25,275 nt of DNA from a virus (Duplodnaviria; Caudoviricetes), in IMG/VR virus record IMGVR_UViG_3300037484_000729, positions 1 to 25,275 of that record; one strand, written 5' to 3'. The translations under genes were made by a program, and so were the position numbers. Below the pieces are notes generated by a model. That model was not told where the DNA came from and made no database searches. It saw only the letters and a list, made by a program, of their open reading frames with translations. Each line of letters opens with the position of its first letter. Position 1 is the stretch's first letter. This document shows positions 2,932 through 21,766 of the stretch, one piece after another.

Positions 2932-3048
2932 AGATTCCAACCCCATTAAAACAGCCTTTAAAGTCGCCAGTATCGCATTTGCCGGGTAACGTCCGACACA
3001 TTGGACAGGTTGTCCAGGCTGCATCAGACAGGGCCATTTTTAGCGCTT

Positions 3049-3864
3049 TCATTTGTCTGGCCATTCCTTCACCGTCATGTTGTCTACATCTATCTCCAGT
3101 TTTTCTGCTAATGGTGTGGCCATTTCTGCCAGCGCGGCCTTTGCAACAGGCTCCGGCCAGGAGGCTATCCGCTCGGTGAGCAGTTCGCCCATGCCCTGCC
3201 AGTAGCTCGCCCCGGCGTTGTATTCAAAACCGATGTCCGGCAGCATCTGGACAGCAGGTGTCCGGTTACCGGTGGTCGGATCTATGGGTTCAATCAAGCG
3301 CTGGGTGATATCTTCCTCTTCAACGCTCAGTCCTCTTTTCTGTACCTGACTCCCGGTCAGGCCGATGACCGAACAGCGTCACCTGTAGCCGTTTGGCGGA
3401 AACCATGTCGCCCAGACCGGATGATTGGCGGGCCAGACCCTGTTATCCATCGCCAGATGGGTGGGACGCACCCGCCTGTCATTGATGGCGCTGTACTGCC
3501 AGTACTCCAGCACATCACGGTCCTGCATCAGCTGCTGGTAATGGCCGACGTTATAGGCGGTCTGGATATTGGTGCGGAAGATGTTGTCAATCCTCCATGC
3601 CCGTTTTCCGGTCCAGCCTCTGCGCTCAAAGATGCCTGCGCATTCCTTCTGGAACTGCTCAAAACTTGTGCCCTGGTCGACGGCCTTCTGCAGTGCCAGG
3701 TATACGGTCGACAGCTCATCGCCCTTGGCAATGCCGGAGACTGCAAAGGCCCGGAGCTTGGCCTCGTTCTCCAGCTCCCTAAACTCAGAGGGTGACACCT
3801 GCACCTTGTCGCGCCAGAATATCTGTGCTGCCTCCATAGGCAGCAAGGCAAACTTAAATGCCAT
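3049..3864 (-). CDS. Mu gpF/gp30 head morphogenesis protein with in-frame TGA (3379-3381), probable selenocysteine readthrough
   Basis: 'IFRTNIQTAYNVG', 'YSAINDRRVRPTH', 'FPPNGYR*RCSV'. ORFs 3379-3885 and 3049-3297 are in the same frame, and the only stop between them is one TGA at the conserved Cys. Confidence 0.85.
3340..3378 (-). promoter_or_regulatory. Candidate bacterial SECIS element
   Basis: 3' of UGA: CGCUGUUCGGUCAUCG-GCCUGAC-CGGGA-GUCAGGU-ACAG. 7-bp upper stem, G-rich loop starting 23 nt after UGA, CUGU/ACAG lower stem. Confidence 0.65.
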
Positions 3865-5428
3865 CACGGGCCACCTTGCGGCCAAACATCTCGGCGTTAA
3901 AAGCCGCCATTTCCATTACCGCCTGCAGGCTGGACATATCCATGTCCGGATACAGCGCAATGATTTTTTCCATCGCCTCTTCATACGAGGCAGAGGAGCG
4001 CACCGTTTCCAGAAGTTTCTGCTCATTGGCATCAAGATGGGTTTGTTCAATGGCTTCGTCCCCCAGTTCTTCCAGCGCCTGTTGCTCTTCGGTAAAGCCT
4101 GCCGTGTTCCGGTCCTTGGCAACCAGCAGTTTTGCTGCAAAGGGTAACTGTACAGGAGCTGGCTGTTGCTGGCCTCCACCGCCCACCATCAGTTCTCCCT
4201 TCTTCGGCTCCGGGATATTAAATTCTTTGTTGAGCCAGGAGGCAGGAACCTGATGAATTCTGGTGATCTTCTCCACCCAGCTCGCCTTGGCGTCCAGATC
4301 CTCGTCTTCATCCAGGCGGGCAAAATAGCCGGGAATCCTGGTATCCCAGCCAAAATTGAACCCGACCATGGGACGGATCAGCTGGTTGCGGATGGTGGCT
4401 GCTTCGGCGCGTCCGTCTGCCTTGAGCAGATCCAGCCGGATACCGTCATGAGTTTTAGATGCTGCATAGCTGCCAGACTCTCCCACATCGGCGGTCAAGG
4501 TCTGCCCCAGTATGGCCTTGGATATCTCGCCGTTGCAGAACTCTGCCAGCATCTTCCACAGATCTCCCTTGACAGATCCCTGCGAGGCCTCGACAAATTC
4601 AATCTCCGTGCTCTTGGAGATGATTCCTGCCGCATCAGTGCCCAGTGATGAAATGGCAGCGAGCAACGCTGCCCGGTCCTCACTGCTTGCACCCTGATCA
4701 TATCTGCCCAGACGCAGCGGCATGCCGTAGGTCTCGCAAAAAATTACCCAGTCCTTGATGGCGTAATGCTTGAACAGCACCATCCAGGCTGCAACCCGGT
4801 AAATGCCGGATCTGGTTGCATGGCCGCTTTTGCCGCCGTATTGATGGAGCAACACCTTCCATTCGGGGATTTCGGCGCCCATGGCATGCTCATCAGAAAG
4901 CAGCAGGGGAAAGCGCCGCAATAAGCCATTGTTGTCGGTAAACAGAAAACGCTGCTGTTCAAGAAACTCAAGTTTGCCGGGCATAGCCATCCCCTCGGAA
5001 ACATCCCAATGGATTTCCATAGCGGCAAAGCCTTTGCCCACTGCGTCCTGCAGGGAAACAAGGCAGTCATCCCAGTCGGAATGGTTTTTGAAAAAATCAC
5101 CGATAAACTCGGCAACCTTGATGTCTCTGGCGTCATCACTGGCAGGCTCCACTTCAAAATCCAGATCCAAAATGATATTCTTGCGTTTGTCACGTTCACA
5201 GAGCAAGTGGCCGTCTTTCTCCTCCAGCTGCTCAAACAGCGCTGCCTGCCGGGAGACATTGCCGCCATCCGCTTCCTTGAAAATCGTTGCCAGCCGTTCA
5301 GGAGTAAGGCCGTCTGTGACATAGTCCCGGAAAGAGTCCAGAATAGGGGCAACAGCCAGAGCGCGCTTCTCAGGCGCCTTCTGTTTTTTTATTTCCCTGC
5401 CGAACTGATCGTATAAAATGACAGCCAT
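3854..5428 (-). CDS. Portal protein (Mu gp29/DUF935)
   Basis: 'LEEKDGHL', 'F.E.YGMPLRLGRY', 'CNGEISKAILGQTLT...GSYAASKTH' motifs. Directly follows the terminase. Confidence 0.93.
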   Translation of the reverse strand: MAVILYDQFGREIKKQKAPEKRALAVAPILDSFRDYVTDGLTPERLATIFKEADGGNVSRQAALFEQLEEKDGHLLCERDKRKNIILDLDFEVEPASDDARDIKVAEFIGDFFKNHSDWDDCLVSLQDAVGKGFAAMEIHWDVSEGMAMPGKLEFLEQQRFLFTDNNGLLRRFPLLLSDEHAMGAEIPEWKVLLHQYGGKSGHATRSGIYRVAAWMVLFKHYAIKDWVIFCETYGMPLRLGRYDQGASSEDRAALLAAISSLGTDAAGIISKSTEIEFVEASQGSVKGDLWKMLAEFCNGEISKAILGQTLTADVGESGSYAASKTHDGIRLDLLKADGRAEAATIRNQLIRPMVGFNFGWDTRIPGYFARLDEDEDLDAKASWVEKITRIHQVPASWLNKEFNIPEPKKGELMVGGGGQQQPAPVQLPFAAKLLVAKDRNTAGFTEEQQALEELGDEAIEQTHLDANEQKLLETVRSSASYEEAMEKIIALYPDMDMSSLQAVMEMAAFNAEMFGRKVARDGI

Positions 5429-6895
5429 TTAAAATGCTCCCCGCTTGGTTGTGCGTTTGCTGACCGATTTGTATTCTGTTTCCCCGCCGCCTTCCTGTCT
5501 GGTGGCATACCATGCCATGGCCCCGGCAATACCGGAATCACCGTGGCGCTGTTTCTTGTCTCTGGCGTTGGTTTTTTTTTCCGGCAGTTTGGGCACCCCC
5601 TTGATTACCTTGAATGCCCGGTGGTCTTCGATGATGTCCGCATCCTTTGGCAGCAGGATGGAACGGTCCTCAAAGGCCGCTTTATACTTGGGCATGTTTT
5701 CCCGGTACCACGACTCGGAGAGCATCACCTGACTGATTCTGCTGGCGCCGTACCGCTGCATGGTAACCTCCGCCAGATACTGGCCGTTGCCCCTGGCATC
5801 AAGCGCGCCGTGCCGGAACCGTGGCAGGCGGTCGATGAGGTAAAACAGGATTTGCTCCTGCTGCCGGAACGGAATGTTGCGCAGCTCCAGGGTAAAAGGT
5901 GCCTTGAAGACTGTGTTCTGCTGCTCCTGCAGGGGGATAATGATGCTCAGATCTCCTGTTCTGGCAAAGTCCTCCCCGAAATACGATTCCCTTTTCTTGT
6001 CCAGGGTTGCCAGCAACGGCTGCAGATAATCCTCGCACCATGCCCCGACCTCTGCCTCCCGCACTGCATCCGGAAGATGGACAAATTCAGACGTCTGCTC
6101 GTAGCGGATCACCGAAATGGTGTCGCTCATACATGCTTCCACCATCGCCCTGGTCAGATAGGTGCCGGAACCCTGGGCGGGAATACAGAAAAGCTCTTCA
6201 TCCGCTGCATCACCGTAGGAGGCAATCAGCCCTGTTTTCCATTCTTCCTCTGCCTCCTGGCTCCACTTCCTGCCCAGCCTGAGACAAATCCGCTTGTAAA
6301 GTCCCTGTTCAACGGCATCATCAAAGGTGATCCTGTGCAGGCTGTATGGTTTACGGCCTGCCCGGATGTCCTTTACCAGCTCATTAAACGGATTGGCCTC
6401 TCCGTCATGGGTTGAGATAACCCGTACCTGACCGCCCCACATCAGCAGGGCCATAGCCGCTTTGAGCAGCTCCCCCAATGCGTCATGGAACGCGGCCTCA
6501 TCAATCACCACTCTGCCCTGCTTGCCTCGCAGATTTGATGGTCTTGATGAGAGAGCGACAATCTTGTGGCCGGATTTAAAGCGAATTCTGAAGGTAAGAA
6601 TGTCCTTGTCCTGGTCAACAAAAACCTCTTCTTCCACCGCCTCCGCCGCCAGATCGTATTGCTTGGCCCAGAACGCGCAGTCTTCGATAAACTCTTCGGC
6701 CATGTCCTTGTTGTAGCCGATATACCAGACATCATCTCCTGAAGCCATGGCTGCAAACAGTGCATCGTCTGCAGCCTCGGACCAGGACAGACCAATCCGG
6801 CGTGATTTTACAATCACTTTGACTTCCGCCTCATCCGCAGCCCAGTCCTGCTGGTAGGGCAGAAAGACATATGGCACATCCGCTGTGGTTGTCAT
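5429..6895 (-). CDS. terL: Terminase large subunit (Mu gp28-like)
   Basis: 'FLPYQ', 'KSRRIGLSW', 'LRGKQG.VVIDEAAFH', 'GEDFARTGD', 'HGDSGIA'. Confidence 0.95.
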   Translation of the reverse strand: MTTTADVPYVFLPYQQDWAADEAEVKVIVKSRRIGLSWSEAADDALFAAMASGDDVWYIGYNKDMAEEFIEDCAFWAKQYDLAAEAVEEEVFVDQDKDILTFRIRFKSGHKIVALSSRPSNLRGKQGRVVIDEAAFHDALGELLKAAMALLMWGGQVRVISTHDGEANPFNELVKDIRAGRKPYSLHRITFDDAVEQGLYKRICLRLGRKWSQEAEEEWKTGLIASYGDAADEELFCIPAQGSGTYLTRAMVEACMSDTISVIRYEQTSEFVHLPDAVREAEVGAWCEDYLQPLLATLDKKRESYFGEDFARTGDLSIIIPLQEQQNTVFKAPFTLELRNIPFRQQEQILFYLIDRLPRFRHGALDARGNGQYLAEVTMQRYGASRISQVMLSESWYRENMPKYKAAFEDRSILLPKDADIIEDHRAFKVIKGVPKLPEKKTNARDKKQRHGDSGIAGAMAWYATRQEGGGETEYKSVSKRTTKRGAF

Positions 6896-7338
6896 GCGCC
6901 TATGCCCAGAATACGGGATCTGATATCATCTGCCATGGCGTCGGAGAGTCCGGCGCCCTTGGCTTCTTTCACCACGTTGACCACCTCTTCCGCCACACGC
7001 TGCGCCTTTTCCAGCTTGTCCCATTTTTCCAAAAGAGATCCCATTTTGGAGAGCGTGTCCATCATGGGCGCTGTCCGGTCTTCTGCGTGCTGGTCTTCCA
7101 GATATTGGAGCTGGTCCTCGAAGAGGTCCCGCAGTCTCTGGACATTGCCGCGCTTCTGGCTTCTGGCTTTGTCCCAGCCGTCCATCTCTTCTGATGGCAC
7201 TTTGGATTCTGATTTCCAGCGCGCCAGCGACGTGACCGATACGCCAAGCCGCTCTGCAATCGTGCTTAATCCATGACCGTCAGTGTATAAACGCATTGCC
7301 TGTGGTTCCAGAAATGCGCGATCGCCCTTATTAGCCAT
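6892..7338 (-). CDS. Putative terminase small subunit (DUF1804/gp27-like, N-terminal HTH)
   Basis: HTH 'LSTIAERLGVSVTSLARWK...WDKAR'. C-terminus 'GLSDAMADDIRSRILGI'. Directly upstream of terL. Confidence 0.8.
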   Translation of the reverse strand: MANKGDRAFLEPQAMRLYTDGHGLSTIAERLGVSVTSLARWKSESKVPSEEMDGWDKARSQKRGNVQRLRDLFEDQLQYLEDQHAEDRTAPMMDTLSKMGSLLEKWDKLEKAQRVAEEVVNVVKEAKGAGLSDAMADDIRSRILGIGA

Positions 7339-7579
7339 AGAGCATCTCTTCCAGCTGACCTATTTTGGCCTTGTGACCCAGCAGCTCTCCCTGCAGCATG
7401 ACCAGATCGTCCATGTGCCTCGCAGCAGAGGCTATATCCATTTCCCCAAATTCCCGCAGGGACGGATTGAGCAGCACTGCCAGATCGTTTAACACCAGCT
7501 TGACACGGGTCTTGATTTTCAAGATTTCCTGTTGGTGTTTGTCCATTTCATATCGCATCAATGCGCGGTTGCTATTCAT
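7331..7579 (-). CDS. Phage hypothetical protein (coiled-coil)
   Basis: Translationally coupled ORF starting MNSNRALM. Confidence 0.65.
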   Translation of the reverse strand: MNSNRALMRYEMDKHQQEILKIKTRVKLVLNDLAVLLNPSLREFGEMDIASAARHMDDLVMLQGELLGHKAKIGQLEEMLYG

Positions 7580-7977
7580 CAGTTTTCTCCCTTTTTTCTG
7601 ACCATTGGGCAAAAATGGTTGTTGTCGATTCTGTCTATCAGCTTGGTGACGGCCATGGTGTTACGCTGGATGATATCAGCCAGCGACCCGGCCAGTTTTT
7701 CATAGACTTCCACCAGCCTGACATTGTCCTCGTAATACCGGGTGACCTTGTCGAATTCCCGCTGATCTGCCAGCCTGTTGGCGTACAGCTGGTTCTGCAT
7801 TTCGTTAAGCGCCTTGGCTATCAGCTCCTGATGGCTGTTGAGAGCCTGTACCATCCGATAATTACCGATCAGGTTGGCGATCCAGGGGCCGATGATCAGT
7901 GCCACCAACACACCCCAGACTTCCCATCCCTGAAACAGTTTGACGATTGTGGCCAGCGCCACGACATCACTGTTCAT
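7579..7977 (-). CDS. Membrane protein with coiled coil (lysis region)
   Basis: N-terminal TM segment 'VWGVLVALIIGPWIANLIG' followed by a helical region. Confidence 0.7.
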   Translation of the reverse strand: MNSDVVALATIVKLFQGWEVWGVLVALIIGPWIANLIGNYRMVQALNSHQELIAKALNEMQNQLYANRLADQREFDKVTRYYEDNVRLVEVYEKLAGSLADIIQRNTMAVTKLIDRIDNNHFCPMVRKKGEN

Positions 7978-8129
7978 CGCGACTTTTCTATTTTATGCCC
8001 AATGCCGACAAGACCAAGCATGCCGCCGATGGCCTCAACGATCGAAGCATATTCCTCGTAACCAGTGGCTCTCATCGCCGCTGACAGCCCAATCAAGATC
8101 GTTCCTGTCCATGTTTTCCAGCCGCCCAT
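7974..8129 (-). CDS. Small two-TM protein, putative holin
   Basis: MGGWKTWTGTILIGL...IGGMLGLVGIGHKIEKSR, AAGGAG RBS, basic C-terminus. True start lies inside listed ORF 7974-8522. Confidence 0.7.
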   Translation of the reverse strand: MGGWKTWTGTILIGLSAAMRATGYEEYASIVEAIGGMLGLVGIGHKIEKSR

Positions 8130-8148
8130 CGTTTGCTCCTTGTTCTGG

Positions 8149-8556
8149 TTATTGTTTGCGCCAACTGCTTCTGCCAAATTGGTGTACTGCTGTGTAGACA
8201 ATATTTGCCACCACCGGATGACCTGTATCGCCGATACATGCCCAGAGTTCATAGTCTGCCTGATTTCTGGTAATGCCGTACCTGCTTCCTTTTCGGTAAT
8301 CAAAATCATGCTGGATGCAGCAGTCCTGCCAGTTTTTGCGCAGGAACGTTTCTGCAAACCAGTGCAGCCCCTCTGTGCTGGAACATTCATCGGTTTCTCT
8401 GGTGGTCTGCACCCAGGCTGCAACCGCCTGTTGGCTTTCCAGCAGCTTGACCGTTTCCGGTGCAATTCTTTCCGCGCCCTGGGGAGCACAGGACGCGGCG
8501 AAAATAATAATGATGAGTGCAATTTTCAGTTTTATTATTTTAATATGGCCATTCAT
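8149..8556 (-). CDS. Lipoprotein with phospholipase A2-like domain
   Basis: Signal peptide and lipobox 'IALIIIIFAASC'. 'DCCIQHDFDY..G...R..AD..L..CI...Y.AV..FG' PLA2-type motif. Confidence 0.7.
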   Translation of the reverse strand: MNGHIKIIKLKIALIIIIFAASCAPQGAERIAPETVKLLESQQAVAAWVQTTRETDECSSTEGLHWFAETFLRKNWQDCCIQHDFDYRKGSRYGITRNQADYELWACIGDTGHPVVANIVYTAVHQFGRSSWRKQ

Positions 8557-8842
8557 AATGATTGCCGTCGTTGAAACGCCCGCCCCAGATACCGCCGACC
8601 GATTCCCACCACTCGCCAAGCTGCTGGTGGTGGCTGGTATCGTCCAGATAGTTGCCGTCCAGGAACAGGTTCAGATCAATTGCCAGTCTGATTTTGTGTT
8701 TGCTGTTCTCCGAGCCATACGGACAGCGTGGATCCCGATAGGCATCACCCAGGGTGACAGCAAAATTCAGCTCATGTGCCTTGTTGAGCAGGCGCCCAAC
8801 CATAACGGCAAATTGCTGCTGTCGTTTGAGTAGGAGGCTCAT
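8540..8842 (-). CDS. Endolysin, M15-family metallopeptidase
   Basis: 'GDAYR', 'SKH...LAIDL', 'WGGRF.DGNHY'. Confidence 0.88.
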   Translation of the reverse strand: MSLLLKRQQQFAVMVGRLLNKAHELNFAVTLGDAYRDPRCPYGSENSKHKIRLAIDLNLFLDGNYLDDTSHHQQLGEWWESVGGIWGGRFNDGNHYEWPY

Positions 8843-9504: not shown

Positions 9505-9556
9505 GGATTGATTGCGTTACATAGTATGCTTTGGATATACAGAAAGAGGAAAAAAA

Positions 9557-9584
9557 TGGTTATGTGATCGGTGTCACATAACCA
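9557..9584. promoter_or_regulatory. Dyad activator site of the late (lysis) promoter
   Basis: Perfect TGGTTATGTGA-N6-TCACATAACCA. -10-like TACTAT on minus strand at 9521-9526, no good -35. Confidence 0.6.
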
Positions 9585-9618
9585 GCAGGGGTGTCGATCA
9601 GGGTATGGTGGGGGGTTC

Positions 9619-9650
9619 TTCAGTGACCCGCTGGGAAGCGGATCACTGAA
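9619..9650 (-). other. 14-bp RNA hairpin downstream of csf3
   Basis: Minus strand TTCAGTGATCCGCT-TCCC-AGCGGGTCACTGAA (one G-U pair), no 3' U-tract. Confidence 0.55.
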
Positions 9651-9706
9651 AAGTGGAGAGAGAAAAAAGAGTTAAAAATTATTACAGGGCGGTTAAGGCT
9701 CACTGG

Positions 9707-10342
9707 TTAGGCCAATAAATCCCCGACCTCTCGGCATCGTATCCGGTCGATCCGGTTCCAGTATGGCGGCATCGAACGCACCAGACGAGTCCCGTTATGA
9801 TCAGGCAGCCAGCGCATAGCCTGGCCATCACGGACAAGGCTCCAGTCTTCCGGCGTCTCCTCGACTTCGATAGAGACGATCCGTCCGTGTCCGTACGCAC
9901 GTTTCTTGCCGAGGTAGCGCAATTGCTTCTTGAGCACCTTCTTGCATTCCCCACGATTGCCGCTGGCAAAAGCCACCATCCTGGGACAAAGCAAAAGCGG
10001 CATGGGCGCGTTCCAGTCCCGGTAAGTGCCATTGGTCAATACCGGTGCGCCGGTACTTAGGTCAGCGCGGCCCTGGCGGAAACGCTTACGCCAGAACTGG
10101 AGGTCTTCCCCTTGCTGCCCATCCGGGAACAGGGCCGAGGCATGCCATACCTTAACGCCATCGATCCTGGAGTTGATCAACGGCAGGGCCACAAACTCAG
10201 GCACATCGTCGCGGCCAAGTTCCTTATTTTTGCATTGCATGGGGGCCAGGCACCAGGCCAGTAAGGCGTCAAGGTGCAGTGGCTCGGATGGATCATAACA
10301 GACCCCTGAGCCGTCAAGATGGAAAATCACTTTAAAGTTCAT
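9707..10342 (-). CDS. csf3: Type IV CRISPR-associated Csf3 (Cas5-like RAMP)
   Basis: 'LHLDALLAW', 'LPL...WHAS', G-loop 'LGKKRAYGHGRI', C-terminal 'MRWLP...PPYW'. Confidence 0.9.
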   Translation of the reverse strand: MNFKVIFHLDGSGVCYDPSEPLHLDALLAWCLAPMQCKNKELGRDDVPEFVALPLINSRIDGVKVWHASALFPDGQQGEDLQFWRKRFRQGRADLSTGAPVLTNGTYRDWNAPMPLLLCPRMVAFASGNRGECKKVLKKQLRYLGKKRAYGHGRIVSIEVEETPEDWSLVRDGQAMRWLPDHNGTRLVRSMPPYWNRIDRIRCREVGDLLA

Positions 10343-11016
10343 GCCAATCCCCTTTGACGCCAGAGATCACGCATCTCGGCGGCATCTGTTGAGTTCATTA
10401 GGTCAAGCGCCCTCTCGGTGTAGGATCCTGGCCTGCAGCCGGTTGAGGTGCGCACCTCCAAGCCAAAGCGCCGGTATGGTGACAGTAGTGGCAACTCATA
10501 CCTAGCAATATAGGCCGCCAGGTCGGCAACTGTCCACCAGGCCATGGGGTAACAGCGGCTACGGCCATCGGCCAGGAGCTTGCAACGTCCGTGGTCTAAG
10601 GTCTTGCATAAGGCCATCCTGCCCTTGCTCTCCTCGGCAGCGATGCCGACAATCTGGCCTCCATGGTGGTGGCTATTGTCATATTCGGCAATCGCCTCTT
10701 TAAGCGACAGTGCGCGGGGCCACTCCAGATAGTTCAAGGGCCAGCGGCCCATGAAGGCCTCTTTAACGGCCATAAAATCACCCAACAACTCGGCATCCTC
10801 CCCGGTCCAGTGCACACAGAGGGTGTGCGGCCGATGAATGGCCACCACATGGGCCAAGATGATAGACTGCTTACCCCAGGACAACGAGAGATATGGGCTT
10901 TCAATTCGATCTATAAACCGGCAGACGTTGGTTATCAGCGCGGTTTCCTTGCCCCGATATTGTGGCAGGTTGGCCATGATCCGGCCATCTGCCAATTGGT
11001 CATCCAGCTTGCTCAC
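10339..11016 (-). CDS. cysH: CysH/PAPS-reductase-like protein (type IV-B accessory)
   Basis: PP-loop variant 'SLSWGKQS', 'GIAAEES..R', 'CYPMAWWTVADL.AYI....LP....Y'. Confidence 0.85.
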   Translation of the reverse strand: MSKLDDQLADGRIMANLPQYRGKETALITNVCRFIDRIESPYLSLSWGKQSIILAHVVAIHRPHTLCVHWTGEDAELLGDFMAVKEAFMGRWPLNYLEWPRALSLKEAIAEYDNSHHHGGQIVGIAAEESKGRMALCKTLDHGRCKLLADGRSRCYPMAWWTVADLAAYIARYELPLLSPYRRFGLEVRTSTGCRPGSYTERALDLMNSTDAAEMRDLWRQRGLA

Positions 11017-11671
11017 TCTTTAGCTCCTCTTGGCTCGGTAACAGGTAGCACATAAAGGCGTAGAGCGCCGACTTGTACCGTGGCCGAGCCCACTCATCGA
11101 ACGCCAGCCACTCCTTAATGCCGTTTTTCTTAATCAACCACGGGGGGCAATTAAGGGACTCGATCACCGAGCGGCCAAATCCTTGCCGCAGTACGGCATT
11201 AAGCCGTTGCCATACCTCTTGCATTTGACCGCTGTCCGAGCAATCGACCAAGCGAGATTCGAAGAGCCATACCATTTGCCCTGGGCCATTGACCCTGGCC
11301 CGCATCGCGCCGTGTTTTTTGTAGCTGGTGGTAGCGTAAGCGGTCCACGGATCGGAAGGGGCCGGGCCAAAGACAGCAGCCCGCACCCCTTGCCGGTCAA
11401 GGCGCTGGAAAGTATGGCCATCGCAGATCCAGGAGCTCATACGCTCCCACTTATAGGCCAAGGCGGTGTAGGCCTCGACGCTCACTCGGTCAGACTGAGG
11501 GGCCTTTAGTAAGGCCCCATCGGTAAAAGACTTGCCGAGCAACTCCTTGCGCGGGATGGTGGCGCCCTCGTCGCCCGTCACGGCGCATATGCCCGTGGCT
11601 ATGGCCACTGGCAAAGCAGGGCAATCCTCAAGGCTATAAATCGCTTGCGCTATCAGTTGCACCGGGTGCAT
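11000..11671 (-). CDS. csf1: Type IV CRISPR-associated Csf1 (Cas8-like)
   Basis: 'GICAVTG...GKSFTD..LL.AP.S', 'P..P......TTSYKKH', and its position in the operon. Confidence 0.8.
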   Translation of the reverse strand: MHPVQLIAQAIYSLEDCPALPVAIATGICAVTGDEGATIPRKELLGKSFTDGALLKAPQSDRVSVEAYTALAYKWERMSSWICDGHTFQRLDRQGVRAAVFGPAPSDPWTAYATTSYKKHGAMRARVNGPGQMVWLFESRLVDCSDSGQMQEVWQRLNAVLRQGFGRSVIESLNCPPWLIKKNGIKEWLAFDEWARPRYKSALYAFMCYLLPSQEELKSEQAG

Positions 11672-12887
11672 GGATGGCTCCTATTTCCGTGAGGTAGGCC
11701 TTGATTTCACCTTGATTATTCTCCAGCCAATCTAAATAGGGCTGTTGGTCTGGAGCTCCTTCAATGGCCAGGTCAACCTTTCCCAGGCCCCGGCGGTTTT
11801 CTGCGCCCAGGAATCCACGCTCCTTGAGCAAGGCCAGGCCGCAACCAAGAGAGGAACGCTCCAGGTCATTGGCATGTGTGTCGATGTCAATGCCACCAGT
11901 AAGCACGGCCCCGGCCTTGATGCACTCGGTATTGGCAATCATGCCTGTGTGCTCATCTTCGGCGGTGCGCCCTTCGTAATCCTCGCGGCGGGTCAGGAAG
12001 GTCCACTCCATCAACTCGGCGGCATTAATGGTGCCGGTGCCCCACTCCAGGCAGCGCGGGCGCAAGTCGTTGACGCAAACCCGGCCAGGCAATACTTTGT
12101 TGCCGATGGCCGATCCGAGCAGGGAAAGAGAGGGCAGCATGTCGCGGATACGGCGGATGCCGTCCGTGCGCAGTGATCCGTTTTTGCCAAGCTCCTTGGA
12201 GATGGCATCCATTATCTTGCTTTGCTCCTCAAGTACCCCGCCAGCATATATCACGTGGAAGAACCAAAGCGCCACCGGAGGCTTATCCTTGCGCGGGGTA
12301 AGTCCAAGCGAACGCAAAAGATGGTCAGCCAGAAGGTCTCGGATCTGGCCCCGGATAGCGTTCCCGGCATAAAACGGCAGCTCCATCACTTGGCCGCCTG
12401 GAGTGATCACCTGCCGGCGGCGGAATAGGGTGGCATTTCCGGCCTTGCCATCGGCACCGTGGGCCAATGGTGCCAGCAGTTCGGCGGTAATGGCCACGTC
12501 AAAACTTGGTTTGGTGGCTATGGCCGTATGCTCATCGCCCGAAACTGGCGGCAAGACGATGGAGGCAACGGCCACCTGATAATCATCTTCGTTACGGAGG
12601 GCCGAGATCATGGCGGCAATGCGTGGATGCTTACGCAACCAAGCTAGGATAGCCGGGGCCTGTGCGGAGTTAGCGGACGCCATAAAAGCGGCGGTGCGCT
12701 TTCCACCCACCAACTCAATACTGGAGTCCATGGTCTTGGCCAGCCTCTCGATGGCATCAAGCAAGGTCGGCTCGGATGTTGACTGAACGATGCGGTCGGC
12801 AAAGAAATCGTCAAACGATCTCTTCACCTTGAGTTGCGAGCCCCCCTTAAGGCTCCGCATCATATCAAGGGTAGCGGTAAGTGGCAT
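11634..12887 (-). CDS. csf2: Type IV Csf2 (Cas7-like) with N-terminal helical Cas11-like domain
   Basis: 'PLAHG...GNATLFRR', 'LPFYAGNAIRGQIRD', 'P.LSLLGSAIGN.VLPGR', G-loop 'LGAENRRGLGKV'. About 110 extra helical N-terminal residues. AAGGAG RBS. Confidence 0.9.
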   Translation of the reverse strand: MPLTATLDMMRSLKGGSQLKVKRSFDDFFADRIVQSTSEPTLLDAIERLAKTMDSSIELVGGKRTAAFMASANSAQAPAILAWLRKHPRIAAMISALRNEDDYQVAVASIVLPPVSGDEHTAIATKPSFDVAITAELLAPLAHGADGKAGNATLFRRRQVITPGGQVMELPFYAGNAIRGQIRDLLADHLLRSLGLTPRKDKPPVALWFFHVIYAGGVLEEQSKIMDAISKELGKNGSLRTDGIRRIRDMLPSLSLLGSAIGNKVLPGRVCVNDLRPRCLEWGTGTINAAELMEWTFLTRREDYEGRTAEDEHTGMIANTECIKAGAVLTGGIDIDTHANDLERSSLGCGLALLKERGFLGAENRRGLGKVDLAIEGAPDQQPYLDWLENNQGEIKAYLTEIGAIHAPGATDSASDL

Positions 12888-12916
12888 GGTTTGCTCCTTA
12901 AGTTATGTGCCAAATG

Positions 12917-12993
12917 GCCTAACAAAACGGCTCACGCAGACGGCGGTGAGCCTTCCGATTTTCAATCAAGTTTTGAGGCCGCCGCTGGTGGCC
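12917..12993 (+). other. Degenerate attC-like site (R' lost)
   Basis: GCCTAAC-AAAAC-GGCTCACG-CAGACGGCGG...CCGCCGCT-GGTGGCC; no GTTRRRY follows. Confidence 0.6.
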
Positions 12994-13493: not shown

Positions 13494-13533
13494 AGTTTTT
13501 TCTCCCATGGTTCAGGTGCGCTGATCGTTATGA
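13411..13533 (+). other. attC-like integron recombination site
   Basis: R'' GCATAAC, CAGGC, L'' GCTACACC, stem TGGAACCATGG/CCATGGTTCA, L' GGTGCGC, TGATC, R' GTTATGA. Confidence 0.8.
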
Positions 13534-13668
13534 GGCGTAGCCTTATCGCGTAGCCAAGCCGTCCCGGCATCAATCGCGGCCTGCTCGCTGTCGTGGTAGC
13601 CGCAAGGCAGTTTCCCCACGCCAATCGCGTGCGCTGCGTAGCCAGGCGCCAGCGTTTCCGGGTCGATA
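13532..13668 (+). repeat. 137-bp direct repeat, copy 1 (3' remnant of the gene at 15383-15616)
   Basis: Identical to 15406-15542 except C13549 vs T15423. Confidence 0.97.
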
Positions 13669-13729: not shown

Positions 13730-13781
13730 AAGTAACAAAGGGAAGGGAATCACCCCGGCCCAAACAACCATGGAGGAAACC

Positions 13782-14078: not shown

Positions 14079-14088
14079 ACTGCAAATA

Positions 14089-15660: not shown

Positions 15661-15999
15661 TTAAAACAAACTCATCTGCCTGTCTTCCATCGTTCCAGGC
15701 TGTTTCAAAATCCTGATAATATGACGGGCGCACAACCCAAATTCTACAGATATCTTTTTTTGCGGAACACCAGCATCCGCTTCCTTCCGGATCGCATCGT
15801 CTCGGATCTGACGTAACAATCCATCAATTTTATGCATATAAACAGGCCCACCACCAAACAACTGGGCAAAGATCAAAACAAGCTCTACTCCCCGGCCAGG
15901 TAATTGTTCTTCAATCACCTCGGCCATCCAGCGCAGCTCTCCCGGCAGTTCCTGTATCTCAGGATAATACTCTGGCGGTATGGTGATATACTTAGACAA
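15661..15999 (-). CDS. mor: Mor/C-family transcription activator
   Basis: 'FGGGPVYM.K.....R..RD..I', C-terminal HTH 'ISVEFGLCARHIIRIL'. Follows gemA. Confidence 0.85.
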   Translation of the reverse strand: MSKYITIPPEYYPEIQELPGELRWMAEVIEEQLPGRGVELVLIFAQLFGGGPVYMHKIDGLLRQIRDDAIRKEADAGVPQKKISVEFGLCARHIIRILKQPGTMEDRQMSLF

Positions 16000-16414
16000 G
16001 CTCCACTCCTTTCCTTTTGCCCCAATCCTTGAGCGCCTCTATCACAACAGCTTTCTGGGCAGCACTGCACCACTGGAGCCGGTCAACCTTGGTCATCTTC
16101 TGGACAAACACCAACAACGCCTGCTCCGAGCTGTTGTGCACCACCCCTGCCTTGTGCAGCGTTATCCACAAGGCCCGAATCTTGCGGGACATGGGATCGG
16201 ACGCCATTTCAATTCCCGGCAGACTCCGCTGTTTCTTCGGCTTCCAGCCAAGGTTCTGGAAATGTCTGAGCAGACGGCCAGCCTGCATGGGCGTCAATTG
16301 AGCGGCTGATTCTTTCCGAAACTGCTCATGCAAAATGGCACGGTATACTTCATCTGTCAGGTTCAGTTCCTTTTTTGCAATATGGATTTTTGCCAGATCA
16401 TTTTTACTTGGCAT
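15992..16414 (-). CDS. gemA: GemA/gp16 (DUF1018) regulatory protein
   Basis: 'LAKIHIAKKELNL.DEVYR.IL', 'KIRALW..L', 'VIEALK.W'. Confidence 0.9.
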   Translation of the reverse strand: MPSKNDLAKIHIAKKELNLTDEVYRAILHEQFRKESAAQLTPMQAGRLLRHFQNLGWKPKKQRSLPGIEMASDPMSRKIRALWITLHKAGVVHNSSEQALLVFVQKMTKVDRLQWCSAAQKAVVIEALKDWGKRKGVELV

Positions 16415-16943
16415 GGTTTATTCCTCCAGATACCTTCTTCAACGGATCGCCATGTTTCTCCAGATACTGTTTCATGATCGGCGATATTTCCTCAGCGCCT
16501 GCCTGCTGATCACGCCGATGGCCTGTCACTTCATTGCTCCTGGCAACCTGCTCATTTCTGGCATCCGCCGCATCCGCCAGGCTCCAGGCAATCTGCAGCA
16601 GATAATTGTGATTGGGCAACGGCAGCTGCAGCGATCCTCTCCGTTCCACCATCTGTTCGATTGCGGTGGCCCAGATCCGCACCGGGCATGGACGGGACAC
16701 CTTTCCCTGTACCTGCACATGACCAGCGGCCACCAGCGCGGCCAGATCCCTGGTGACGCGCAACGCCTTTTTCCAGCTCAGCGCCGACTTGCCGGGCCGA
16801 AACAAACTCAAATATCCGAGCAATACCGGTTGCAAGCCGCTCGGCAACTCACAGGCCGCTTTCAGCATTTCCCTGGCTGCGGCGTCATTTTCCCAGGCAT
16901 CGGCCCCGGCAACAGCTCCACATGATGGACATATCAGTTTCAT
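16404..16943 (-). CDS. Conserved Mu-like early hypothetical protein (Zn ribbon)
   Basis: 'MKLICPSCGA', 'YLSLFRP', 'LPNHNYL'. Confidence 0.75.
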   Translation of the reverse strand: MKLICPSCGAVAGADAWENDAAAREMLKAACELPSGLQPVLLGYLSLFRPGKSALSWKKALRVTRDLAALVAAGHVQVQGKVSRPCPVRIWATAIEQMVERRGSLQLPLPNHNYLLQIAWSLADAADARNEQVARSNEVTGHRRDQQAGAEEISPIMKQYLEKHGDPLKKVSGGINHAK

Positions 16944-17039
16944 ATTTTTCAATTTAATTTTTCGTTTATCATCGGCTGGCATCATCAGGCCGGAGCAACC
17001 ACACTCCGACGATCCCGCCCATTTGGGCAGGATTTCGCC

Positions 17040-17657
17040 TTATACTCCTGCAATATCAAGACTTATCTGTTTCCACTGGTCAGTGCCGCTGATCCTCTCA
17101 TACACCCGCAGATAGATCCGGCTGCCGGCAACGGTCAGGCTGTCGTTGATTGCCTCCATTGCCTGGAGCCAACGTGCGTCTTTGATGTTAAATTTACGCA
17201 GGGACAGGATCTGCTGCGTGTTGACGTTGCCCTTCTTGTCAACCCGAAAGGCATCATTGATCAGCAGTCTTATTTCCGGTCTGGCCTCTCCACCCCATTC
17301 CCGCAAACACTCATCGATCAGGCCCTTTGCTACCTGCAGCCGCTCATCAAAATCAAAGGAGTCCGAGACTGCACGCAGTATTTTGTACTTGCCGTCATAG
17401 CTCAGCAGACTGATGTTCCCCTTTTCACCGCCGTATTCTCTGCCGTATTCCATCGCTGAGAGATCGGAGAAAGCCGCTATTTCCGTGAAAGCGTGCTCCT
17501 TGAATTTCTTCAATCCGGTGTTGACGCTCAGCGCCATTCGCACCAAATCCATCACCAGCTCATGTCTGGTGCGGTCTATCTCCTTGACCATTTCGTCAGG
17601 CACCAGCCGCCCCATAGTGTCCTGCATATATCCTTGCGGCATTGTTATTTCAGGCAT
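17040..17657 (-). CDS. DUF3164 family protein
   Basis: 'GYMQD..GRLVP', 'GGEKGNISL.SYDG', 'FDERLQVAK.LIDECL..W'. Confidence 0.88.
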   Translation of the reverse strand: MPEITMPQGYMQDTMGRLVPDEMVKEIDRTRHELVMDLVRMALSVNTGLKKFKEHAFTEIAAFSDLSAMEYGREYGGEKGNISLLSYDGKYKILRAVSDSFDFDERLQVAKGLIDECLREWGGEARPEIRLLINDAFRVDKKGNVNTQQILSLRKFNIKDARWLQAMEAINDSLTVAGSRIYLRVYERISGTDQWKQISLDIAGV

Positions 17658-18036
17658 GTGTTTTCTCCTTTGTCCGTTCTAGTTCCTCACAGATCCGCTG
17701 CAAACCAGCTTCGTTCCGCAGTTCAAAAACGTGCTGGATCAGTACTGACAGATTGCCAGCCGCCAGACCGATAGTAAACAGGGTGTGGTCTGTTGAGCCT
17801 TTTTTGTATTCGTCAATCAGCTCCACCAGCCTCAGCATATGTGCTTCTGCGTCATTGCGGTATCCGCTGATAGTGTGGTTGTTCATCTTTCCCTGCATTT
17901 TAAACAGTTCCAGCGTGGTCATTTTCATTGCCTTGAGCCGGTCCTGCAGTTTGTGGTTGTTAATTATCAGTGCGTCAGACTGCAGCTCTGCAATCCCTGT
18001 CAGTATTCCAACCACTTTATTATCTATCGGTTCCAT
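17650..18036 (-). CDS. Hypothetical protein
   Basis: AGGAGG RBS, coupled to the DUF3164 gene. Confidence 0.7.
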   Translation of the reverse strand: MEPIDNKVVGILTGIAELQSDALIINNHKLQDRLKAMKMTTLELFKMQGKMNNHTISGYRNDAEAHMLRLVELIDEYKKGSTDHTLFTIGLAAGNLSVLIQHVFELRNEAGLQRICEELERTKEKTHA

Positions 18037-18060
18037 GTATTCCTCCTTTGTTTTATCTGG

Positions 18061-18369
18061 TCAGTTTATATACGCTTCGCAGGTTTGGCAGGCGTCCCAC
18101 AACTCCACCCTGGTCGGGTTGGCGGTGGAAAATTCCATTGACCGCTCCAGTGCACAGCGTCCCAGCTTGATAGTGCCAAGCACTGGACATACCACACTGA
18201 CATTGCCGTACACCTCTATGATCTTTGCAGCCAACCGCTCGGTGTTGCCCTGGTAATTATGGTGCAGCACCTGATTAATGGCAGATGCACTGTATCCAAG
18301 GCGCCTGGCTACCGCAGCCTGTGAGCTTTCTGTCACTGCATTTTGCAGCAGATATTCCCAGTCCATCAA
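18061..18369 (-). CDS. XRE-like HTH protein with C-terminal Cys cluster
   Basis: 'SQAAVARRLGYSASAINQVL...Y.G', 'VVCPVLG...C...ACQTC'. Confidence 0.8.
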   Translation of the reverse strand: MMDWEYLLQNAVTESSQAAVARRLGYSASAINQVLHHNYQGNTERLAAKIIEVYGNVSVVCPVLGTIKLGRCALERSMEFSTANPTRVELWDACQTCEAYIN

Positions 18370-18692
18370 TCATCACCTCCAAGGGTTTCGCCGGTGTTTG
18401 GGTCCCACAGTTTGCCATTATTGCGAGGTACTGGATATTGCGGCCCGGTATCCTGCATCAGTTCCAGTTTCTGGGCATATCCCTTTTCAGCTGCCTTGCC
18501 GACTGTGCCGATTATCTCTACATAGCCCCATTGTTTTAATGCCCGGAGGTATCGCCAGAGATTGTCCATGGATATCTCGGCTGTTGCCGCAATCTGAGGG
18601 GCGGTGAACACCCTGAAAATTCGCATGGACGTCCATGCCCTGGCTCGTGCTGTCCTGCCACCACTCCTTTTCATCCCTTTTTTACCGGCCAT
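18366..18692 (-). CDS. Winged-helix protein following MuB
   Basis: 'W.SMR..R.FT...IAATA.....N...YL.AL...GY', 'DTGP..P', 'WDPN'. Confidence 0.75.
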   Translation of the reverse strand: MAGKKGMKRSGGRTARARAWTSMRIFRVFTAPQIAATAEISMDNLWRYLRALKQWGYVEIIGTVGKAAEKGYAQKLELMQDTGPQYPVPRNNGKLWDPNTGETLGGDD

Positions 18693-19393
18693 TAAACGCT
18701 CCTTGAATCAAAGAACAGACGGCGCTGTCCCCATGCTGCAAGATCCACGCTGTCGCTGTTCGCGTTTTTCGCGAGGCGCTCTATCTTGTACAGCCCGGTG
18801 GAAACAAGGCCGATATTCCCGCCGGATTCCGTATGCAGCTTGGCCAGCAGATCATCCGCCACCTGCACTGTGCAGACATCGTCACAGACCAGTCTGGTAT
18901 CGGTGCTATCCAGCGGCTTGAAGTGGACTTCCTGGGTGATGCGGCGCATAAAGCGTTCGTTGGTGGCAAGAGAACGGGTGATGTCATCCATGCCGATCAT
19001 GACGATGGGACGGCGGGACAGGTCGTATATATCGCGGACTACGTCTATCATGTTCTCAGTGAGATAATCGGCCTCATCAATAAAGAGACAGCGGCGGGTG
19101 ACTTTGAGCTGCTTGACCACAAAATCAAACATCGGGTTGATAAATCGTGATGGCTTGCCGCCAAGTTCGTTGACCATTGCCGCCAGCATGGAGCTGGTCG
19201 ACCATGTGCGCAGGGCACGGACGAAAACGCCGTTGACCCGGTTGCAGACAAAAGCGGTTCCCCAGGTCTTTCCTTCGCCTGGGCGTCCGCGCAGAAGGGA
19301 CATGCCTTCCACGTTCAGGGTGCGTTCTTCCTGCGCTCCCATGGCCACCAGATAGGCTTTGATATTTTTGGTGATTGTCGTTTTAACACGCAT
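18692..19393 (-). CDS. MuB-like AAA transposition ATPase
   Basis: Walker A GRPGEGKT, Walker B LFIDEAD, 'RDIYD', 'MIGM'. Confidence 0.92.
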   Translation of the reverse strand: MRVKTTITKNIKAYLVAMGAQEERTLNVEGMSLLRGRPGEGKTWGTAFVCNRVNGVFVRALRTWSTSSMLAAMVNELGGKPSRFINPMFDFVVKQLKVTRRCLFIDEADYLTENMIDVVRDIYDLSRRPIVMIGMDDITRSLATNERFMRRITQEVHFKPLDSTDTRLVCDDVCTVQVADDLLAKLHTESGGNIGLVSTGLYKIERLAKNANSDSVDLAAWGQRRLFFDSRSV

Positions 19394-19445
19394 GTGCTAC
19401 AATCCTCCGAAGAGTTGAGGGGGCTAATCCTCTGTTTTTTGTTAT

Positions 19446-19472
19446 AAGCCGTGCGCCAACACGGCTTTTTTT
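19446..19472 (+). terminator. Hairpin between A and B with T-tract on plus strand
   Basis: AAGCCGTG-CGCCAA-CACGGCTT-TTTTT. Confidence 0.55.
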
Positions 19473-19489
19473 ATTGTCTTTTTGACTCT

Positions 19490-21766
19490 TTAAAATGCCC
19501 CTGGATAAGCATCATTCTCATAAATATCCTGCAGTGTCAGGTATTCGCTGGTGGTCTTGTAATACTCAATCCATTTCTGCTGGGTGTCTGTGAGTGCTGG
19601 CATTGTCTGGAGAAATTCAAACCGTTCCCAGCCATCCAGATTTTCCCAGCCTGACTGGTCTGCGTCCTTGATTTTTTTCTGGTGAAAATTACCTCTTGCA
19701 TCCACTACTTTTACTGATTTCGGTTGTGGTTCCGGCGCTGTCTCTGCCAGTATCTGCATGGCTTTCTGTTCATCTGCCTCGCTCAGCTGTGCCGGGTCTT
19801 CACTTGAGTATTGGTTATCGATGATATCCAGTGCTCTGTATGCCTCTTCCAGCCCTGCAGATGTGTGTTCCGTTGATTTTTGAGGCAGGTTGATAATGTT
19901 TTCCACCTGTGCTTCCCGGTAGTCGATATATTCGCGGAAGGCTTCCCGCTCTCCTTCGCTTTTGGTGTCCTGTATCAATTGGCGTTTTCGCTCCCGCATC
20001 ATTTTTGCCTGATGATTTTTGGCCTTGGTGTAGAATTCCTTGCGGTCTATGCCTGTGAAAATCGGGTCTATGGCAGCACAGAGGAACTTTTTCTCTCCTG
20101 ATTCCTGCATCAGATAGACATAGACTGTGCCCAGGTCGACCGGATCGAGCAGGATGAGCGCCTTGTCGCCGATATGCCCGGCAAAATCAGGTGACTGGTA
20201 CATACGGTTTTCAACCTGTATGCCTTTCTTGCCGATCACCCTGATACCGTTACCGTCCGGGGCTGGCATCAACAGAAGATCAAGCGCCCTGGTGTTGCTG
20301 ATCCGGCGGATTGGCTCTTGCCAGCTGCGTACCATTTCAATGGGTTTTTTGCCGTTCAGACCGCCGTGTTTGTCGTGCTGGTACACGTTTTCCGTCCATT
20401 TATCGCAGATCTCCTGCAGCTCCTGACTGGTCAGGTTTACCTGTACCGGGTCGCTGCCCTTGTTCATGACGCGATCAGCAAAGGTGCGCCTGGCTTCGAT
20501 CGCTTTGCGCTCTGCAACGTTATGCCCGATATATCCGGGCATCAGCTCGACCAGACCGTGCAGAAATGTCCTGAAACCGCGTTCCATGTGCGGTTTTTCC
20601 TCGCCCTTGAACGGTGTGCAGAGCACCTGCTCAATGTCAAGGCTGTCCAACACCCGCACCACATGTTTGGAGATATAGTCCTTGCCGTTATCGGTCTTCA
20701 GTATCTCCGGTACGCCCCAGCCGAGGATGCAATGGCGGAGCAGGGATATGACAGCAATTGCCCGTGATGTTTTGGAGACGAAAAGCTTCATCCGCCGTGA
20801 CCAAACGTCAATCATACCGATCAGAGAGTGCCTGCCGTCTTTCAGCATCAGGTCTGCAGGGGTTGAATCCGCTTCCCACAGGCCGTTGAGGCTGGTGACC
20901 TTTTCAGAGGCCGAGCCAAAGGCAAACATTTTCTTGTTACGCCATTCGTCCGGGTTAGTCAGAAACAGCCAGAATTCCTGATTCTGCGCAATCCACAGGT
21001 CTCGATAACGCCTGATGACCCCAACGCTTGGGACTTCTTTTTGATACCTGCCCAGCAGTGCCTTGCGGATATTCTCACCGCTGGTTGCAGGGTTTTTAAT
21101 CATGATTTCTATCACTGTTTTCTGCTGGTCTGCAGAGAGGCTTGACCGGCCTTTATTTGGGTTGTGATAGCTGTTGGAAAGTGCCGCCAGACCGCCTTGG
21201 TTAAAAGCCCGCATCCATCTGTTATAGGTTGACCAGCTGACAGTATTTCCGGCAACCGCCTGGACTGCATCATCCAGGGTGATGTTATTCTTATTGTATT
21301 GTTCCAGAAACAGTTCCTCACCAACACGGCTGCGCTGTGCCCCGCGTCTGGGCTTGATGCCGGCCGCTTGTACGAATGTCTGGCAGGTTTTGATAAAATC
21401 ATATCTGGCATTGGCAATCGTTTTCTGGTCATCGCTGAGCAGATCAAAAGCAGCCAGCCCGGCTTCCTTGGCAATCAATGCCAGCTCCCGCTTTTCGGCC
21501 TGCTCGCCGATGATCTTCCGCGCCGCTGCCTCCCCGGCATGGAGAGGATAACCCGCGGTTGTTGTCGGTTTTGGTAAGGCACGTTCCTTCACTAGAGCGA
21601 TCCGGTACGATTCAGGCAGGAGGGATATAAAAAAATGCTTTTCATTTCCGCTCTGACCGGTCCGCCATATATGAGAACAGCTTTTCTTGGCAAGATTCCG
21701 CCTGATAGTGGTCTCATGCTTGCCTGTTGCCAGTGTTATTTCACTAATAGTTGCTGTCTGTCTCAT
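19490..21766 (-). CDS. MuA-like DDE transposase
   Basis: DDE residues in 'WEADSTPAD', 'LKTDNGKDY', 'EKPHMER'. N-terminal Mu-type HTH and C-terminal barrel 'RVIGKKGI'. Confidence 0.95.
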   Translation of the reverse strand: MRQTATISEITLATGKHETTIRRNLAKKSCSHIWRTGQSGNEKHFFISLLPESYRIALVKERALPKPTTTAGYPLHAGEAAARKIIGEQAEKRELALIAKEAGLAAFDLLSDDQKTIANARYDFIKTCQTFVQAAGIKPRRGAQRSRVGEELFLEQYNKNNITLDDAVQAVAGNTVSWSTYNRWMRAFNQGGLAALSNSYHNPNKGRSSLSADQQKTVIEIMIKNPATSGENIRKALLGRYQKEVPSVGVIRRYRDLWIAQNQEFWLFLTNPDEWRNKKMFAFGSASEKVTSLNGLWEADSTPADLMLKDGRHSLIGMIDVWSRRMKLFVSKTSRAIAVISLLRHCILGWGVPEILKTDNGKDYISKHVVRVLDSLDIEQVLCTPFKGEEKPHMERGFRTFLHGLVELMPGYIGHNVAERKAIEARRTFADRVMNKGSDPVQVNLTSQELQEICDKWTENVYQHDKHGGLNGKKPIEMVRSWQEPIRRISNTRALDLLLMPAPDGNGIRVIGKKGIQVENRMYQSPDFAGHIGDKALILLDPVDLGTVYVYLMQESGEKKFLCAAIDPIFTGIDRKEFYTKAKNHQAKMMRERKRQLIQDTKSEGEREAFREYIDYREAQVENIINLPQKSTEHTSAGLEEAYRALDIIDNQYSSEDPAQLSEADEQKAMQILAETAPEPQPKSVKVVDARGNFHQKKIKDADQSGWENLDGWERFEFLQTMPALTDTQQKWIEYYKTTSEYLTLQDIYENDAYPGAF

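Follow-up and report, generated by a model that had tools for sequence, protein, structure and literature searches.

CRISPR-Cas systems of type IV-B have been described as array-less, linked to a cysH-like gene and present in prophages and viruses; their function is regarded as open, and a modification role has already been proposed, as far as the accessible parts of these sources go (PMC8175902, PMC7937560, PMC7038947, PMC10848311, PMC12669027, PMC11656645, PMC11437467, PMC12839542, bioRxiv 2023.08.02.551345, bioRxiv 2026.09.14.751636). Phage- and virus-borne IV-B loci as such are already published. The system of Mycobacterium sp. JS623 (PDB 7JHY) comprises Csf1, Cas11, Csf2 and Csf3 together with CasCysH, and the solved IV-B filament contains six Csf2 and five Cas11 subunits according to the accessible part of its report (PMC7937560). 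Here we analyze a IV-B cassette in the viral record IMGVR_UViG_3300037484_000729, a 25,275-base fragment of a Mu-like phage whose tail half and genome ends lie outside the record; the whole fragment is referred to below as the window. We identified the genes of the cassette and found that its Cas11 is fused to its Cas7, that it is under purifying selection, that it is mobile among unrelated phages and that its enzyme has been replaced repeatedly. Our preferred explanation, held tentatively and at somewhat less than even confidence, is that array-less IV-B cargo acts as a Cas scaffold that works without a guide and carries an interchangeable modifying enzyme to freshly made phage DNA, shielding it from host restriction-type defences; it would then be a counter-defence module, and neither an immune system nor a guide for transposition.

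The cassette consists of four overlapping open reading frames (ORFs) on the minus strand, in the order csf2-csf1-cysH-csf3 (window 12887-9707, 3.2 kb), with overlaps of 38, 17 and 4 nucleotides (nt) between successive frames. The first (11634..12887) encodes a 417-amino acid (aa) Cas11-Csf2 fusion that matches PADLOC typeIV_Cas7 (E 2e-40) and, through an AlphaFold model searched with Foldseek, Csf2. The second (11000..11671) encodes a 223-aa Csf1, the Cas8-like large subunit (PADLOC Csf1_0_IV, typeIV_Cas8/Csf1, E 1e-10); the third (10339..11016), a 225-aa CysH-like PP-loop enzyme (PHROG phosphoadenosine phosphosulfate (PAPS) reductase, E 2e-9); and the fourth (9707..10342), a 211-aa Csf3, or Cas5 (PADLOC Csf3_0_IV, typeIV_Cas5/Csf3, E 4e-31; TIGR03116 E 3e-17, below cut-off). 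They occupy the variable slot between mor and the lysis genes and run in the same direction as the early/middle operon; mor lies about 2.8 kb upstream, the interval to csf2 being filled with small ORFs. A preliminary description, made from the sequence alone, had listed these four genes at these positions, placed them between mor and lysis, assigned them to type IV-B and asked for a check with Cas profiles; all of this is borne out, with PADLOC naming three of the genes. NCBIfam matches to csf2 and csf3 fall under the curated cut-offs and a Pfam scan of the four proteins gave no match, so the family is divergent. No solved-structure relative was found with the Csf1 family profile.

The window ORFs include no cas1, cas6, dinG or RecD helicase gene, and repeat scans showed no array-like repeat, in agreement with the preliminary description; because the record is a fragment, these absences cover 25 kb of the phage, without its tail half. 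With Csf2, Csf3, Csf1, a fused Cas11 and a cysH-like gene, and with no array, cas6, helicase or adaptation gene in the fragment, the cassette is an intact type IV-B variant, that is, an architectural variant of a known subtype. Types IV-A, IV-D and IV-E were rejected for lack of a DinG or RecD helicase, Cas6 or array among the ORFs and repeats scanned, and type IV-C was rejected because the large subunit is the 223-aa Csf1 and not a Cas10-like HD protein.

The AlphaFold model of the 417-aa protein (predicted local distance difference test score, pLDDT, 89) matched type IV Csf2 (E 6e-10) and the IV-B structure 7jhy (E 4e-9). It is laid out as a helical domain at about aa 1-110 (window 12558-12887; pLDDT 96), a linker, and a Cas7/RAMP domain at about aa 127-402. 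A Foldseek search with the helical domain gave nothing at E<=0.001, the best template-modelling score being 0.50, to the small subunit of 7jhy. A profile of 56 such N-terminal domains found its best PDB match in Cas11c of the type IV-C effector (PDB 11fs, E 6.5e-4), and 43 of the 56 members match PADLOC Cas11_0_IV at E<=1 (best 2.4e-6; the window's own domain, 0.039). In addition, hhalign aligned this profile with the free 125-aa cas11 genes upstream of unfused csf2 in L044-L048, as we number the surveyed loci (E 1.5e-5). By these profile matches, residues 1-110 are a Cas11-like domain fused N-terminally to Csf2, as the preliminary description had proposed. A direct search with the fused protein returned 453 homologues. 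The Cas11-domain profile returned 119 clusters at 50% identity, 59 with a length of 380-490 aa and 60 shorter ones in which fragments and free proteins are unseparated. Since the solved filament pairs six Csf2 with five Cas11, the fusion plausibly sets a Cas11:Cas7 ratio near 1:1. The position aligned to the putative catalytic Asp42 of 7JHY is an invariant Gly150, and the nearby Asp146 is kept in 113 of 116 sequences. In L051 a second, isolated match to the Cas11 domain alone (L051:14698-15015, 64%) lies 1.4 kb after csf3.

Compared with the JS623 system, the cassette has the same five functional parts and a matching Csf2 fold, and both reside on a mobile element without array, cas6, cas1 or helicase. 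They differ in that Cas11 is here joined to the N-terminus of Csf2, the gene order is csf2-csf1-cysH-csf3, the element is a phage rather than a megaplasmid, Gly150 stands at the Asp42 position, and the enzyme belongs to a distinct subfamily, termed KQS below. The Bathyarchaeia Fuxiviridae (PMC10848311) and a Methanoperedens virus (bioRxiv 2023.08.02.551345) likewise carry a IV-B locus with a cysH-like gene for which anti-defence has been proposed; according to the accessible parts of these reports, however, cas11 is a separate gene there, the hosts are archaeal, the viruses are not transposable, and the Fuxivirus has a mini-array. Type IV-C, which also gives a Cas7 match (Cas7c, E 0.003), has a Cas10-like HD nuclease in the place of Csf1, and none occurs in the window cassette. 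We came across no paper that describes an N-terminal Cas11-Csf2 fusion, replacement of the IV-B enzyme by radical-SAM (S-adenosylmethionine) or IbrAB proteins, or IV-B in Mu-like phages; subscription papers and supplements may hold such cases.

The CysH-like family profile matched PAPS reductase and CysD best in the PDB, with TtuA and TilS also matched. The PP-loop of the window enzyme reads SWGKQS, whereas most relatives have SxGKDS; among 73 enzymes, 57 carry KDS, 14 KQS and one KHS, and one was unmatched. All 32 homologues found have the glutamine, so KQS is a fixed trait of its subfamily. The motif ECGLH, which we take to be the C-terminal catalytic cysteine motif of PAPS reductase, was found in none of the 73. 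A bona fide PAPS reductase (CysH) was rejected for the window enzyme, which is without that motif.

The enzyme has been replaced repeatedly, by unrelated families, on the Csf2 tree. Relatives were collected as 142 loci (50 viral, 12 from genomes and the best 80 of 147 metagenomic), which together with the window form 110 groups at 95% Csf2 identity; as the seed was the fused protein, the search favours the fused clade. The enzyme slot was tallied in the 76 groups with csf3 in view, the other 34 being truncated or without csf3. It holds a CysH-like enzyme in 60 groups (nine of which also carry IbrA/IbrB), a B12-binding-type radical-SAM protein in 7, IbrA/IbrB without CysH in 6, and no recognised enzyme in 3, one of which ends at a contig edge. 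IbrA combines a PAPS-reductase domain with DUF3440, and IbrB is a ParB-N protein. Radical SAM and CysH co-occur in 0 of the 7 groups (Fisher p 5e-6, uncorrected for kinship). On a Csf2 tree of 84 rows, the radical-SAM label requires 8 changes, at least 7 of them forced by supported branches, and the KQS subfamily requires 12; with 30 of these rows, monophyly of the radical-SAM carriers was rejected (approximately unbiased test, p 2e-40). In 4 of 11 close pairs, moreover, the Csf core is alike (nonsynonymous divergence, dN, 0.04-0.20) while the enzyme is distant (dN 0.47-0.92).

Other genes were seen in or near these cassettes. The enzyme slots of two loci hold ORFs of 333 and 310 aa (L117:529-1530 and L140:3330-4262) that gave no more than weak DUF matches below cut-off and are candidate further payloads; an ESM Atlas search with the ORF of L117 gave no usable match. 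A dual-specificity-phosphatase-like gene (below cut-off) lies between csf1 and cysH at L102:4641-5327. Three small unnamed families accompany IbrAB within the cassette (L007:11851-12138, L105:3210-4004 and L027:13508-14368, with kin), in 6, 3 and 3 groups respectively, and have no Pfam, NCBIfam or PHROG match. One cassette (L018:11218-14227) has two copies of csf3, in the order csf2-csf3-cysH-csf1-csf3.

With 110 locus groups, the fused clade is wide; in those cases whose genomic context can be seen, it is mostly phage-borne, in phages otherwise little related in content. In ten near-complete phage genomes, the three Csf families occur in all ten and the CysH-like family in eight, with only one other family present in at least three genomes. 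Because these genomes share almost only the cassette families, the cassette moves on its own between phages. Cultured phages gave one weak Csf2 match (Skermania phage SPI1, 28%) and plasmids seven, none reaching 80% query coverage. The window has a sister phage (L001, the same as L143; 99%); by tree, the nearest Csf2 relatives are L002, L064 and L051. The cassette is kept under purifying selection, with a ratio of nonsynonymous to synonymous substitution (dN/dS) of 0.04-0.25 in unsaturated pairs among the 11 close ones. Alternatively, the window lineage might have acquired it only recently, as cargo now neutral or in decay: between window and sister, the corresponding polymorphism ratio (pN/pS) is 0.31 for the cassette against 0.10 for core genes, the PP-loop is altered, and the GC content of the cassette is slightly higher (57-58% vs 51-55%). 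However, all four frames are intact in both sisters, the cassette pN/pS is still below neutral (p 3e-4) and KQS is fixed in 32 of 32 homologues, which makes decay very improbable.

We found no CRISPR-like array in 111 loci spanning 1.16 Mb (exact repeats of at least 20 nt, period 45-100); the repeat-scan matches in 10 of these loci were low-complexity, tandem or lone pairs. A mismatch-tolerant scan of the ten near-complete genomes and the window found none near the cassette. All-versus-all and k-mer comparison of 97 upstream and 66 downstream flanks revealed no shared non-coding element beyond close kin, and degenerate or single-repeat guides could escape such repeat and flank scans. An Rfam scan of the window gave no RNA tied to the cassette. 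The short upstream intergenic stretch (12888..12993, minus strand) contains the csf2 ribosome-binding site, with no significant fold (z -1.5) and no sigma-70-type promoter call inside. Downstream of csf3, two strong hairpins lie on the same strand within 9505..9706 (fold z -5.7); a U run comes after the second of them (9584-9557), in a terminator-like arrangement. These hairpins were rejected as a Csf RNA because they recur only in the sister, which has an insert of 870 nt between csf3 and the hairpins; they are likely the phage terminator and late-promoter region. That insert (L001:13189-14057), directly after the csf3 stop, carries copies of one 12-mer at its two ends, together with a small acidic ORF, a 71-aa gene of the Xre helix-turn-helix (HTH) type and an AT-rich stretch.

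These searches bear on a second alternative, in which the complex uses an RNA guide to silence nucleic acid of the host or of a rival element, or to mark it at specific sites, with the guide supplied in trans or encoded by an RNA gene that escaped detection. Cas5, Cas7, the Cas8-like subunit and Cas11 are all under purifying selection, one related locus (L038) has a cas6 gene after cysH, and a mini-array accompanies an archaeal-virus IV-B locus in the accessible part of that report (PMC10848311). Against this stand the absence of an array from the 111 loci, from the surroundings of the cassette in the ten near-complete genomes and from L038, the lack of a shared element in the flanks beyond close kin, and the finding of cas1 in 0 of 36 cassette-bearing viral records; we thus regard guided targeting as quite unlikely. 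The cas6 gene of L038 (L038:13574-14086; PF08798, E 1e-24) directly follows cysH in a fused-type cassette and has no array nearby. In another locus (L283:4758-4865, G017), some 12 kb away from the cassette, two identical 37-nt copies flank 34 nt and overlap a gene start, forming either a mini-array or a local duplication.

The complex could also act as an anti-CRISPR sponge that soaks up host CRISPR RNAs (crRNAs). Small ORF/HTH pairs whose layout we take to be acr-aca-like flank the cassette, and cas1 is present in 7 of 12 cassette-bearing genome bins, about the rate in the tool's controls (7 of 14). This role has been proposed in print (PMC7038947, PMC8175902), but in the accessible part of the structural report crRNAs make up about 0.12% of bound reads and are unenriched (PMC7937560), and the cited authors themselves judge it unlikely. 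As a sponge would also leave the enzyme present in 73 of 76 groups unexplained, we consider it improbable.

A conserved scaffold, an enzyme that is almost obligatory yet exchangeable, and a guide locus that was not found together suggest a delivery platform for chemistry. The reading tips toward newly made phage DNA because of DNA-type cargo and clamp-like tails. The in-operon cargo includes matches to N6/N4 methyltransferases (L027, L107) and the ParB-N protein IbrB, and a TET-associated glycosyltransferase lies near the cassette in L013. A C-terminal tail that we take to be clamp-binding-like ends 9 of 89 Csf1 proteins, compared with 2 of 240 Csf2, CysH and Csf3 proteins (uncorrected for kinship). 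Middle-transcript expression, which the preliminary description had put forward and which is judged from gene orientation only, would have the cassette expressed co-directionally with the middle operon during replicative transposition. The fusion protein would then polymerise on single-stranded nucleic acid, with Cas11 and Cas7 in a fixed 1:1 ratio (the solved IV-B complex has 6:5) and Csf1 and Csf3 as caps. The PP-loop enzyme would bind an adenine nucleotide and adenylate or otherwise activate a base or backbone group, and the product would be a protective mark on the phage DNA. The general idea of an anti-defence role, made in the preliminary description, holds. The mom gene of phage Mu is likewise DNA-modification cargo. 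IbrA/IbrB, the PAPS-reductase-like enzymes DndC, SspD and BrxP, and ParB-activated T-dioxygenases resemble the cassette as PP-loop or ParB-N phage accessories of like proposed purpose, and the accessible part of one report describes truncated ParB activators of post-replicative phage DNA modification (PMC13229309). AMPylation of bound nucleic acid has been proposed before for IV-B, in the part of that paper accessible (PMC8175902). None of these phage DNA-modification cargo systems is known to use a Cas scaffold. For the present cassette, no cysteine desulfurase partner was seen, and the chemistry is a proposal.

A rival reading has a scaffold that binds RNA without sequence preference and an enzyme whose substrate is RNA (transfer RNA (tRNA), messenger RNA or defence RNAs), or which synthesises or degrades an adenylated small molecule, in host takeover or counter-defence. 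RNA-modifying enzymes are found among the PP-loop and radical-SAM families, csf3 is followed in L072 by a SpoU RNA-methylase gene, and the enzyme-swap evidence fits equally well. The IV-B filament, moreover, assembles on heterogeneous RNA of 55-60 nt in the accessible part of its report (PMC7937560). The DNA-type nature of the in-operon cargo (N6/N4 methyltransferase, ParB-N) and the clamp-like tails on some Csf1 proteins speak against RNA or a small molecule as the target, an alternative that we consider unlikely but take seriously.

Delivery of the enzyme to newly made phage DNA, which we prefer, has several observations weighing against it. No IV-B locus is known to us to have an activity or to give rise to a modified base. 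The PP-loop relatives among the profile matches include the tRNA-modifying TtuA and TilS, and the glutamine that replaces the PP-loop aspartate in the window enzyme may change or remove pyrophosphatase chemistry. The Csf1 of the window is without the clamp-like tail, and the higher pN/pS of the cassette than of core genes between window and sister is significant (p 0.011). The mor-lysis slot of other Mu-like phages carries mixed cargo, with 2 methyltransferase matches in 119 representatives (of 206 clusters), and as a DNA-modification-specific site it is unsupported. A terminase or portal gene lies within 3 kb in 15 of 47 loci, which without a control is about the chance level for genomes of 40-60 kb; this proximity was dropped as support because the control is lacking. 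Finally, the solved IV-B filament binds RNA, not DNA, according to the accessible part of its report (PMC7937560).

The phage itself is a Mu-like transposable phage. Profile scans found the markers of the Mu gene order, namely a MuA DDE transposase, MuB ATPase, GemA, Mor, Mu portal, MuF and gpI, with the Mor and MuB matches partly below Pfam cut-offs, as well as a repressor and DUF3164. Two blocks of these phage genes are on the minus strand: the early/middle operon (15661..21766), with MuA (19490-21766), a MuB-like gene (18692-19393), DUF3164, GemA and a Mor-like gene (15661-15999), and the lysis and Mu-like head genes (1376..8842), with an M15 endolysin, terminase, Mu portal, MuF, a gpG-like gene and the gpI protease. 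The preliminary description had raised a link to transposition targeting and called for a survey of Mu-like phages, which went against it. Of 79 GemA loci surveyed, 60 span gemA to a late gene, and the single one of these with the cassette is the 99% sister. Among the 36 cassette-bearing viral records, two contain GemA (those of the sister and a Sulfuriferula prophage), as does 1 of the 10 near-complete ones; it was not found in the record of L002. The Sulfuriferula prophage, called Mu-like from GemA, Mu portal, MuF and a pair formed by an HTH-led 603-aa protein and an AAA protein, has its cassette between portal and MuF, in contrast to the mor-lysis site of the window lineage. The window MuA found no match in the Sulfuriferula genome, and Mu-transpos_C profile scans gave zero matches, controls included. 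Because the insertion sites differ, the two Mu-like lineages likely captured the cassette independently, although a sister relation of the two on the Csf2 tree survives a rejection test (p 0.07).

A complex that directs MuA/MuB insertion would have precedent in the CRISPR-linked Mu transposons of types I-A and V, and two Mu-like lineages do bear the cassette. CasMu-I and CasMu-V likewise combine, in one element, MuA and MuB with Cas genes that lack a nuclease, but in the accessible part of their report they have arrays, type I-A or V effectors and, in CasMu-I, the CasMuC adaptor (PMC10910872), whereas here the element is a full phage, the cassette is array-less and the linkage is inconsistent. 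Membership of CasMu was rejected, there being no consistent linkage of cas genes to MuA/MuB and no array or homing spacer. The rarity of the cassette in Mu-like phages, its presence mostly in phages without GemA, the lack of an array or of a second MuA-like adaptor gene in the window, and the two different sites make a role in target selection extremely improbable. The cassette looks incidental to Mu transposition, and the Mu setting adds little.

The window has further features apart from the cassette. A type II hammerhead ribozyme (Rfam RF02276, 53.4 bits against a gathering score of 37) lies on the minus strand at 16970-17040, between the gene for DUF3164 and the early gene adjacent to it. 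A 137-nt direct repeat (99%) at 13532-13668 and 15406-15542, with a spacing of 1,874 bases, brackets a variable segment; this region is arranged otherwise in the sister L001 and in contigs of run X1, one arrangement skipping 1,874 bases. On the plus strand, 13716-14540 holds an antisense pair of small ORFs, one of 120 aa and unknown, the other of 136 aa (PHROG 20491, HTH-like); a terminator-like hairpin separates the two, in a layout that to us resembles acr-aca operons. A pentapeptide that we likewise take to be clamp-binding-like is C-terminal in the Mor-like protein (15661-15999, minus strand) and N-terminal in a 139-aa regulator (22708-23127, minus strand).

The job of IV-B is a stated open question, and reviews put the key in the CysH-like partner. 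In this clade the partner turns out to fill a slot whose occupant can be replaced; this points towards nucleic-acid chemistry, as in the delivery of a modifying enzyme that we favour, and says what to measure. The construct is compact, with four genes in 3.2 kb and Cas11 fused to Cas7, and the natural CysH, IbrAB and radical-SAM versions are built-in comparisons. More broadly, though we regard this as doubtful, the Csf complexes of the phage clade may be a general chassis, a Cas11-Cas7 filament that takes PP-loop, IbrAB or B12 radical-SAM payloads, would be clamp-tethered in some lineages, and writes a protective mark not yet described. Should such a chassis take up a defined RNA, it would amount to a programmable nucleic-acid writer of natural origin.

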